Below, in pieces: positions 42,559 through 43,659 of a DNA stretch of 64,000 nucleotides. The notes under the pieces were generated by a model. That model was not told the DNA's origin. It was given only the letters and a program-made list of their open reading frames with translations, and did not search any database. Each line of letters begins with the position of its first letter. Position 1 is the first letter of the stretch. Where the stretch lies: the sequence record PV648359; one strand, 5' to 3'. This stretch comes from Escherichia phage LF82-1. The translations under genes were made by a program, and so were the position numbers.

Positions 42559-43659
42559 TTACGCTGTGAAGATTTTATCCCACATCGCAACAACCGCATC
42601 TCGGTTATACTTCTTCCATACTGCTTCAGCACGTTTAACTCGAGCTTCGTATGTGTCAGTGAATTCTAATACAGCTTTTGTGTAAAGCGCAACTACTTCT
42701 TTCTTAGGAGTAGAGGAATCAATTTCTACACGCACAGTATCTGGGTCATATTCGAATGTCGCGTGCGGATAATCCTTAAAAACTAACTGAATCACAGGGA
42801 CACCTTTAGAGATGGCTTCAATAGAACTATTCTCTACCGTACCCGTGTCAGGACACGTATTTATAAGTGCTTTAGCTGTTTTAAGACGTTCCATGATTTC
42901 ACTGTGTGGAGCATCAATAATAACAGGATACTTAGCCGGTGGTGCCCATTTACTAGGACAATAACCAATACCATTTTCGCCTAGTGCTTTAATCGCTTCA
43001 AGAGCAACATCAGTACGACGCATTTTAGTGTCATAACGTTGTGCACTAATAATCAGATCAGTCGCCGGAAGAACTTCAGGTTTCTCATTCAAACAAATAA
43101 CCGGATAATCTTCAGCTTCAAACAACGGATTTGCTCGCCAATAATCATAATCAATTTTGTCAGTCAGACCTGAAGTCATATAACAATATTTACGTTCAAA
43201 TTCACGGAAGGCTTTAGTAGGAGCATAGCTCTTACCACCATTCTTATGAATTTGAATAGTCTGGTCCCAAATTTGAACAATGCCACGAGATACCGGTTCA
43301 AATGGTGTTGCCATAAAATTCTTATGAACTTTAGAGAGACCTGCGTCTTTAATTGCCTGAACGGTTAGTTTAGTCGGTTCCATTGTAACAACGAAATCGT
43401 ACTCATTAATGCCGGCTAGTTCAACAATCTTACGAGCCATAGTATAACTCATACCTAGACTGAATTTAGTCAGATGACCAACAGGATGATGATTAACCTT
43501 CCAGTCACCAAACGTGTCATTATCAAAGCCGATATAATCAATATCAGCACCGATGGACACAAGATATTTCAACACATTTAAATGTACCGCCTCAAGACCA
43601 CCTTGTACACGGTCAGGATTAAATGGGACTGCACGAGATGGGATAAACATAACTTTCAT
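42559..43659 (-). CDS. putative GT-B fold glycosyltransferase (candidate DNA hmC glucosyl-modifying enzyme)
   Basis: 366 aa; C-terminal E-x7-E-like GTVENSSIEAISKGVPVIQ; sits where T4 has gene 60/mobA. Confidence 0.55.
   Translation of the reverse strand: MKVMFIPSRAVPFNPDRVQGGLEAVHLNVLKYLVSIGADIDYIGFDNDTFGDWKVNHHPVGHLTKFSLGMSYTMARKIVELAGINEYDFVVTMEPTKLTVQAIKDAGLSKVHKNFMATPFEPVSRGIVQIWDQTIQIHKNGGKSYAPTKAFREFERKYCYMTSGLTDKIDYDYWRANPLFEAEDYPVICLNEKPEVLPATDLIISAQRYDTKMRRTDVALEAIKALGENGIGYCPSKWAPPAKYPVIIDAPHSEIMERLKTAKALINTCPDTGTVENSSIEAISKGVPVIQLVFKDYPHATFEYDPDTVRVEIDSSTPKKEVVALYTKAVLEFTDTYEARVKRAEAVWKKYNRDAVVAMWDKIFTA

Follow-up and report, generated by a model that had tools for sequence, protein, structure and literature searches.

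What is the product of the 366-amino-acid (aa) open reading frame (ORF) that separates rIIA.1 from gene 39 in Escherichia phage LF82-1 (PV648359), and in which reaction does this product take part? The locus was analysed within a stretch of 64,000 nucleotides of that genome, hereafter the window, and the features discussed are listed in Table 1. An earlier reading of the same DNA, made from the sequence alone (hereafter the sequence-only reading), had assigned to the ORF a putative GT-B glycosyltransferase and a candidate role in the glucosylation of hydroxymethylcytosine (hmC), possibly that of the beta-alpha (gentiobiosyl) transferases of phages T2 and T6.

Table 1. Features of the window that bear on the glycosyltransferase gene and its proposed pathway.
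Feature	Coordinates	Strand	Basis
rIIA	40040..42253	minus	ORF neighbour
rIIA.1	42266..42466	minus	Pfam T4_RIIA1, E 2e-30
366-aa GT-B glycosyltransferase ORF, ATG start	42559..43659	minus	ORF list; full-length match to 9iqz
Codons 273-281 (GTVENSSIE), degenerate EX7E nucleotide-sugar motif	42817..42843	minus	hhalign against P0015
Shine-Dalgarno AAGG (TAAGG), 7 nt 5' of the ATG of the 366-aa ORF	43667..43670	minus	Read from the sequence
7-bp hairpin with UUCG tetraloop, overlapping the stop codon of gene 39, with a T-rich tract after it	43686..43703	minus	Terminator scan
Gene 39, continuous 605-aa ORF, topoisomerase II large subunit	43702..45519	minus	ORF neighbour
173-aa dCTP pyrophosphatase, gp56 type	55345..55866	minus	Pfam dUTPase_2, E 1e-6; record annotation
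182-aa nucleotide kinase, RB69 gp45 homologue, first gene of the modification cluster	63302..63850	minus	Annotated as thymidylate kinase in the identical record
GT1, last 48 codons, cut by the window end	63852..64000	minus	63852..63998 translates to the C-terminus of LF82-2 XUL00620.1

The gene order is as the sequence-only reading had described it: the ORF lies between rIIA.1 and gene 39, and gene 39 is unsplit. Residues 452-605 of the gene 39 product match the gp60-type PHROG 7229, and T4 has genes 60, 60.1 and mobA at the position of the ORF. In T6, no gene is present at this position and rIIA.1 directly adjoins an unsplit gene 39; the ORF is thus an addition relative to the T-even phages, and the unsplit state of gene 39 is not in itself unusual. 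The window is 100% identical to the genome of the RB69-like Mosigvirus Escherichia phage LF82-2 (PV648360.1) and to nine sibling isolates, and is 95-99% identical to about 150 further RB69-like coliphages and Shigella phages. Coordinates of the LF82-2 record are converted to those of the window by subtracting 32000; the 26 kb that were compared contain no mismatch.

Sequence comparison identifies the protein directly. It is identical at 363 of 366 positions to RB69 ORF003c (gp3, RB69p003, NP_861693.1), from which it differs by the substitutions N85H, I231A and T327I, and the RB69 gene has the same flanking genes, namely rIIA.1 and a gene 39 that is likewise unsplit. A search of PDB sequences yielded a full-length match (E 3e-249, 98% identity) to 9iqz; the entries 9IQZ and 9IR0, released in July 2025, are described as "phage HY126 glycosyltransferase" without and with UDP, respectively, so that, on the basis of the title of 9IR0, UDP is bound by the 98%-identical HY126 protein. 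The ORF is therefore a real gene rather than a chance reading frame, given that it is conserved and that a 98%-identical protein has been crystallised, and its product is the Mosigvirus orthologue of RB69 gp3, a protein that has already been described, named and crystallised. This knowledge is poorly reflected in public annotation. The full-length match in PHROG (8302) is to a family of "unknown function", the orthologue in the LF82-2 record is labelled "hypothetical protein", and the same label is carried by nearly all of the 155 near-identical records listed, one of which reads "putative glycosyl transferase". The homologues in several Acinetobacter phage records are mislabelled "putative DNA alpha-glucosyltransferase".

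The protein is a two-domain, GT4-like glycosyltransferase of the GT-B fold, as had been claimed for the fold from the sequence alone; the assignment rests on the fold search, on the structure solved for a 98%-identical protein in the presence of UDP and on the alignment of the family profile, over its full length, with a Pfam GT4 protein. The structure model used in the fold search was produced with AlphaFold2 from a six-sequence alignment and is of low confidence (pLDDT 59, with residues 116-187 below 50) owing to the very small size of the family and the shallowness of the alignment; its use was confined to fold searches. Beta/alpha alternation is predicted in both halves of this low-confidence model. 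The comparison of a predicted structure with GT-B folds, which the sequence-only reading had proposed as a check, retrieved with Foldseek the solved 9ir0/9iqz first (TM 0.71), followed by the GT-B enzymes BshA, PimA, WaaG, PglA, tll1591 and tetrahydrobiopterin glucosyltransferase (E ~1e-8); there were 321 matches at E ≤ 1e-3, and those listed all have a probability of 1.00. Viral GT-B proteins were among the matches in a fold search of BFVD.

At the level of sequence, relatives are scarce. A Pfam scan of the ORF detected no family at E ≤ 1, Glyco_transf_4 and Glycos_transf_1 included, and sequence and profile searches of the PDB up to E ≤ 10 gave nothing besides 9iqz/9ir0. Searched exhaustively with the family profile, 1.84 billion representative proteins yielded only 12 relatives (clusters at 50% identity), compared with 5 clusters found by a word-indexed homologue search, which makes this a strikingly narrow family. 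One of the two weakest of these relatives, P0015, provides the link to the larger glycosyltransferase families: it matches the family profile with E 1.7e-4 (in 1.84 billion proteins), passes the Pfam Glyco_transf_4 cut-off (31.9 bits vs 28.5) and aligns over the full length with the ORF family in hhalign (probability 94.6%). The protein shares the GT-B architecture, a donor of the UDP/NDP-sugar type and, in the EX7E helix, the second Glu with T4 alpha-glucosyltransferase (alpha-gt), PimA, BshA, WaaG and PglA, although identity to alpha-gt and the bacterial GT4 enzymes is at most ~15% and although its acceptor would be a sugar on duplex DNA and its proposed donor a furanose. This kinship was recognised by Thomas et al. 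(2018), who obtained HHpred probabilities of at least 98.1% for ORF003c against structures of T4 alpha-gt and bacterial GT4 enzymes. Neither BLASTP nor hhalign, the latter with a shallow family profile (Neff 1.6), detected similarity between the ORF and T6 alpha-gt; the likeness to alpha-gt is accordingly described here at the level of fold only, being undetectable at this depth where Thomas et al. needed deep HMMs.

The sequence-only reading had further pointed to a C-terminal "E-x7-E-like" segment typical of retaining GT-B enzymes. The peptide quoted for it, GTVENSSIEAISKGVPVIQ (residues 273-291), contains no literal E-x7-E by a regular-expression check and instead reads E276-x4-E281, and the sole literal E-x7-E occurs in the N-terminal half of the protein (residues 86-94). 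In the hhalign alignment (family alignment A1), the first Glu of the canonical E-x7-E of P0015 aligns with G273 and the second with E281, so the segment is best read as G273-x7-E281, supplemented by the family-invariant E276. The claim thus stands for the second Glu, E281, which is canonical and starts the EAISKGVPV helix, and fails for the first, the position of which is occupied by G273. In the six-sequence alignment, the columns that do not vary include T272-N277 and E281. A retaining mechanism, as in GT4 enzymes, is plausible, and, with UDP-beta-D-arabinofuranose (UDP-beta-D-Araf) as the donor, retention would be consistent with a beta product; however, with this weak model, inverting GT1-family enzymes score about as well as retaining GT4 enzymes, and the fold does not decide the stereochemical mechanism.

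The substrate is indicated by the genomic setting. A modification cluster (95302-101851 of the LF82-2 record) begins at position 63302 of the window, continues past its end and encodes a kinase, a glycosyltransferase denoted GT1, a thymidylate-synthase homologue, a U32-family protein, a small phosphatase, a fused NTP-transferase/kinase and a SIS-domain arabinose-5-phosphate isomerase. GT1 is a 299-aa protein with no Pfam match and is a homologue of RB69 gp46:47 (RB69ORF046c/047c lie under the tblastn match). A pathway role for the gp45 homologue is proposed in Table 1 of PMC13326640, which also includes the dCTP pyrophosphatase RB69p028. The thymidylate-synthase homologue has an Asn at the position of ThyA D169, where both E. 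coli ThyA and T6 gp42 (taken from its record) have Asp. An Asn at this position is a diagnostic signature of 5-hydroxy-dCMP synthases (PMC13326640). The pathway genes and the Asn signature together point to a 5-hydroxy-dCMP/UDP-arabinose pathway and not to an hmC/glucose one, and in this phage the ORF family co-occurs with the Asn-type synthase, the genes of UDP-arabinose synthesis and GT1.

The corresponding chemistry has been established in RB69, the DNA of which was shown by MS/MS and NMR to contain alpha-D-Araf-5-hydroxy-dC and beta-D-Araf-(1→3)-alpha-D-Araf-5-hydroxy-dC (PMC13326640). RB69-like phages thus carry mono- and di-arabinofuranosyl-5-hydroxycytosine and no glucosyl-hmC (PMC13326640, PMC13390438). 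This product structure corrects the "arabinosyl-hmC" assignment of Thomas et al. (2018), the study in which ORF003c, a diverged GT-B protein, first emerged as the best candidate for the RB69 arabinosyltransferase. The gene is a published part of the arabinosyl-5-hydroxycytosine hypermodification system of RB69-like phages. The idea of a DNA-modification enzyme is therefore retained insofar as the protein is part of a pathway for the glycosylation of a modified cytosine in phage DNA, with the corrections that the base is 5-hydroxycytosine rather than hmC and the sugar arabinofuranose rather than glucose.

That the enzyme would nevertheless be an hmC-DNA glucosyltransferase, possibly of the T2/T6 beta-alpha type, is extremely improbable. 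The GT-B fold is also that of T4 alpha-gt and beta-gt, and some of the Acinetobacter homologues are annotated as "putative DNA alpha-glucosyltransferase"; against this, RB69 DNA has arabinose on 5-hydroxycytosine and not glucose on hmC (PMC13326640; Thomas et al., 2018), a gp42 orthologue is absent from the 80 kb of the phage that were searched, where the only match to T6 gp42 was the 25%-identical homologue with the Asn signature, and all tblastn matches to the ORF below 60% identity come from Acinetobacter phages or one Tegunavirus record and none from a T-even phage. The gentiobiosyl assignment in particular has to be abandoned. The T6 beta-alpha-glucosyltransferase Ggt is a 261-aa protein encoded between gene 42 and uvsX, that is, elsewhere in the genome, and has no similarity to the ORF (hhalign probability 2.9%, best BLASTP E 9.5); T6 alpha-gt and ggt likewise have no tblastn match in the same 80 kb. 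Membership in the T2/T6 family was thus rejected on the combined grounds of sequence, locus and the lack of a gp42/hmC pathway in the searched 80 kb. What the enzymes probably have in common is an analogous function, the addition of a second sugar onto the first: a like logic is proposed for both, in which a second transferase places a beta-linked sugar on an alpha-linked first sugar, although the proteins are not homologous and the T2/T6 enzyme transfers glucose in the context of hmC.

The acceptor might also be something other than DNA, such as a protein, a small molecule or a component of the host envelope, in which case the connection of the enzyme with DNA modification would be coincidental; the distance of ~20 kb between the gene and the modification cluster in RB69-like phages and the nature of the closest solved folds, which act on lipids, thiols and polysaccharides, would be compatible with this. 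Such a role is nonetheless very unlikely, considering that the gene is found only in phages with the arabinosyl-5-hydroxycytosine cluster, that it is embedded in this cluster in Acinetobacter phages and that homologues act on DNA in vitro (PMC13326640).

Two transferases are encoded by the phage, and the question of which sugar is added by which enzyme is addressed by their phyletic patterns. GT1 was found in 348 phage records, including phages of Escherichia, Klebsiella, Serratia, Enterobacter, Proteus, Yersinia, Kosakonia, Providencia and Acinetobacter. The ORF family is represented in 211 records (tblastn): 155 of RB69-like coliphages and Shigella phages (95-100% aa identity to the ORF), 55 of Acinetobacter phages (~43% identity over the full length) and one Tegunavirus; each lineage with a member of this family also has GT1. 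A single copy is present in every RB69-like record listed, with an additional partial tandem copy in Shigella phage JK45, and two places are matched in each of the 10 Acinetobacter records listed of the 55. In Acinetobacter phage Berthold, both paralogues (Berthold_074/075) are located inside the cluster, directly after the kinase gene. Identity between the two Acinetobacter paralogues is 57%, whereas each has 40-43% identity with the 366-aa protein, which implies that the duplication in the Acinetobacter phages followed the split from the RB69-like lineage and that neither copy is a strict orthologue of the ORF. Nevertheless, the Acinetobacter pairs (DLP3 gp76/gp77, Berthold_074/075) belong to the same family and the same pathway, and share with the ORF the invariant motifs GGLEAV (N-terminal), QR...R, CPSKWAP, TGTVEN.S.EAIS.G.PV and HATFEYDP; the lineages differ in that the gene is duplicated and adjacent to the kinase within the cluster in Acinetobacter phages, whereas in the RB69-like phages it is single and lies far from the cluster.

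These patterns can be compared with the number of sugars per cytosine. The DNA of Acinetobacter phage DLP3 is tri-arabinosylated, and its gp76 and gp77, considered homologues of the 366-aa protein in the same study, together add a third arabinose to RB69 DNA in vitro in the presence of UDP-Araf, whereas single DLP3 transferases are inactive on 5-hydroxycytosine DNA (PMC13326640). Both DLP3 proteins are needed jointly for the third arabinose; the RB69-like phages stop at two sugars. At the other extreme, Shewanella phage Thanatos is mono-arabinosylated and encodes only an enzyme of the GT1 type (PMC13326640). Judging from gene content, 0, 1 and 2 copies of the family thus track 1, 2 and 3 sugars in Thanatos, the RB69-like phages and the Acinetobacter phages related to the tri-arabinosylated DLP3, respectively. 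The occurrence of GT1 in 348 records and of the ORF family in 211, together with these copy numbers, fits a role in the addition of the second arabinose, in agreement with the proposal that gp46:47 is the first transferase and gp3 (RB69p003) the "beta-arabinosyltransferase 2" (PMC13326640). The 366-aa protein, as the RB69 gp3 orthologue, is therefore likely to be a GT4-like, UDP-sugar-dependent enzyme that adds the second sugar (beta-D-Araf) after GT1 has acted, and it is specifically the second rather than the first transfer that we infer for it here. A phenotype in a related phage is known second-hand: Mosigvirus Bas46 is reported to become sensitive to a defence system upon deletion of the arabinosyltransferase Aat, which may be the orthologue of gp3 (PMC13216743).

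The opposite order of action, in which the 366-aa enzyme would be the base-proximal first arabinosyltransferase on 5-hydroxycytosine and GT1 would extend the chain or do something else, appears unlikely but deserves consideration. Thomas et al. (2018) proposed ORF003c as the RB69 arabinosyltransferase in general, the first step included, and of the two transferases it is this one and not GT1 for which the HY126 study provided a PDB entry with UDP. On the other hand, GT1 is present in all lineages with the 5-hydroxy-dCMP synthase cluster (the 348 records), and phages of Klebsiella, Serratia, Enterobacter and Yersinia have GT1 without a homologue of the 366-aa protein. The mono-arabinosylated Thanatos, with its GT1-type enzyme only, and the doubling of the family copy number (1 to 2) on going from di-arabinosylating to tri-arabinosylating phages are also at odds with a base-proximal role, as is the behaviour of DLP3 gp76 and gp77, which lengthen an arabinose chain that is already present in vitro and do not act on bare 5-hydroxycytosine DNA (PMC13326640).

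Under the second-transfer assignment, the pathway would proceed as follows. The gp56-type dCTPase would remove dCTP from the pool and supply dCMP, which the flavin-dependent thymidylate-synthase homologue would hydroxylate to 5-hydroxy-dCMP, to be phosphorylated and incorporated into DNA. UDP-D-arabinofuranose would be produced from ribulose-5-phosphate by the phage arabinose-5-phosphate isomerase, the bifunctional kinase/uridylyltransferase and a HAD phosphatase. GT1, the gp46:47 homologue, would attach alpha-D-Araf to the 5-oxygen of the base, and the 366-aa enzyme, presumably soluble and dependent on a UDP-sugar, would act on the phage DNA after replication, adding beta-D-Araf to O3 of the first sugar to yield beta-D-Araf-(1→3)-alpha-D-Araf-5-hydroxy-dC. 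The second sugar would make for a bulkier modification and could alter which host nucleases or other defences act on the DNA.

There is also a slight chance of an unexpected activity, whereby the enzyme would act alone, as a GT4-like transferase of furanose with a degenerate G-x7-E, act in a base-proximal manner, or set the ratio of mono- to di-arabinosylated cytosines in a sequence-dependent way. If this were the case, the family, with its 12 clusters in 1.84 billion proteins, would represent an unusually specialised lineage of glycosyltransferases that recognise sugars on DNA, and action alone would contrast with the Acinetobacter paralogues, which need each other.

In practical terms, the value of the finding lies in annotation, the gene being mostly labelled "hypothetical protein" in public records. 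Whether a T4-like phage carries 1, 2 or 3 arabinoses per cytosine appears to be predictable from the presence and copy number of the family, taken together with GT1 and the thymidylate-synthase homologue of the Asn type. In the selection of therapeutic phages, this matters for predicting how sensitive they are to restriction, CRISPR and type IV systems.

The hairpin that overlaps the gene 39 stop codon has a folding energy of -10.5 kcal/mol and a z-score of just -1.2. It resembles an intrinsic terminator or an element of RNA stability between gene 39 and the glycosyltransferase gene, and a terminator is annotated at this place in several public records. Terminator-like sites are enriched in the region 42100..46100 (8, against 2.4 ± 1.5 expected), and a scan of the same region for sigma-70 promoters found no enrichment (12 sites vs 12.9 expected). 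Inspection by eye of the 42-nt gap upstream of the ORF detected no convincing middle promoter with a MotA box. Downstream of the ORF, the 92-nt spacer before rIIA.1 can form a long hairpin (-28.5 kcal/mol, z = -5.2); the place corresponding to this spacer in T4 and T6 contains a sequence resembling an early promoter, GTTTAC...TATAAT.

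Approximately 137 phage records carry GT1, the other glycosyltransferase of the arabinosyl-5-hydroxycytosine pathway, next to a thymidylate-synthase homologue and without any member of the family of the 366-aa glycosyltransferase, and the prediction is that these phages either are mono-arabinosylated or employ a second transferase of a different kind. These records are from phages of Klebsiella, Enterobacter, Kosakonia, Serratia, Proteus and Providencia as well as in other coliphages (e.g., JS10, Bp7 and WG01). GT1 has no Pfam match, and its annotations vary between “hypothetical protein” and “RNA polymerase binding protein”. 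The core of the modification cluster, which consists of a homologue of 5-hydroxy-dCMP synthase, a U32 protein, a phosphatase, an NTP-transferase/kinase and an A5P isomerase, is located just past the end of the window and is invisible from the window sequence alone.

In the homologue search of phage records, the only homologue of the 366-aa glycosyltransferase outside the RB69-like and Acinetobacter phages was a distant one (<60% identity), encoded in a single record of Tegunavirus, a genus of Yersinia phages. Given that GT1 is also present in six Yersinia phage records, these gene contents suggest that some Yersinia phages may be poly-arabinosylated. In Shigella phage JK45, the complete glycosyltransferase gene is followed by a 136-aa ORF that repeats the C-terminal portion of that gene (BFVD, 100% identity). 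Either part of the gene has been duplicated in tandem or the extra ORF is an assembly artefact. The JK45 record is classed as Tequatrovirus despite its RB69-type genes.

The 92-nt spacer between the glycosyltransferase gene and rIIA.1 is mostly taken up by a long, stable hairpin, in which an 11-bp outer stem (GGCACUAUUAC/GUAAUAGUGCC) encloses an inner stem-loop (dG −28.5 kcal/mol, z −5.2; none of 200 shuffled sequences folded equally well). The RB69 version differs by one stem mismatch, whereas in T4 and T6 the place of the hairpin upstream of rIIA.1 is occupied by an early-promoter-like sequence, GTTTAC...TATAAT. Possible roles of the spacer hairpin are transcription termination, RNA processing and translational control of rIIA.1. 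Near gene 39, a second hairpin of the UUCG type (6 bp, GC-rich, AAGGGCUUCGGCCCUU) is similar to the one that follows this gene, which suggests that this style of intergenic hairpin recurs in the early region.

Coordinates of the glycosyltransferase genes, hairpins and neighboring gene discussed in the text
Feature	Sequence	Coordinates	Strand	Location or extent
Spacer hairpin	Window	42487..42547	minus	Between glycosyltransferase stop and rIIA.1 start
UUCG-type hairpin	Window	45569..45584		Directly downstream of RB69ORF005c homologue
RB69ORF005c homologue	Window	45583..46008		Next gene upstream of gene 39
GT1 gene, 3′-terminal 48 codons	Window	63852..64000		Rest of gene past window end
Glycosyltransferase gene and partial copy	L005 (stretch of Shigella phage JK45, MK962757.1)	601..2204
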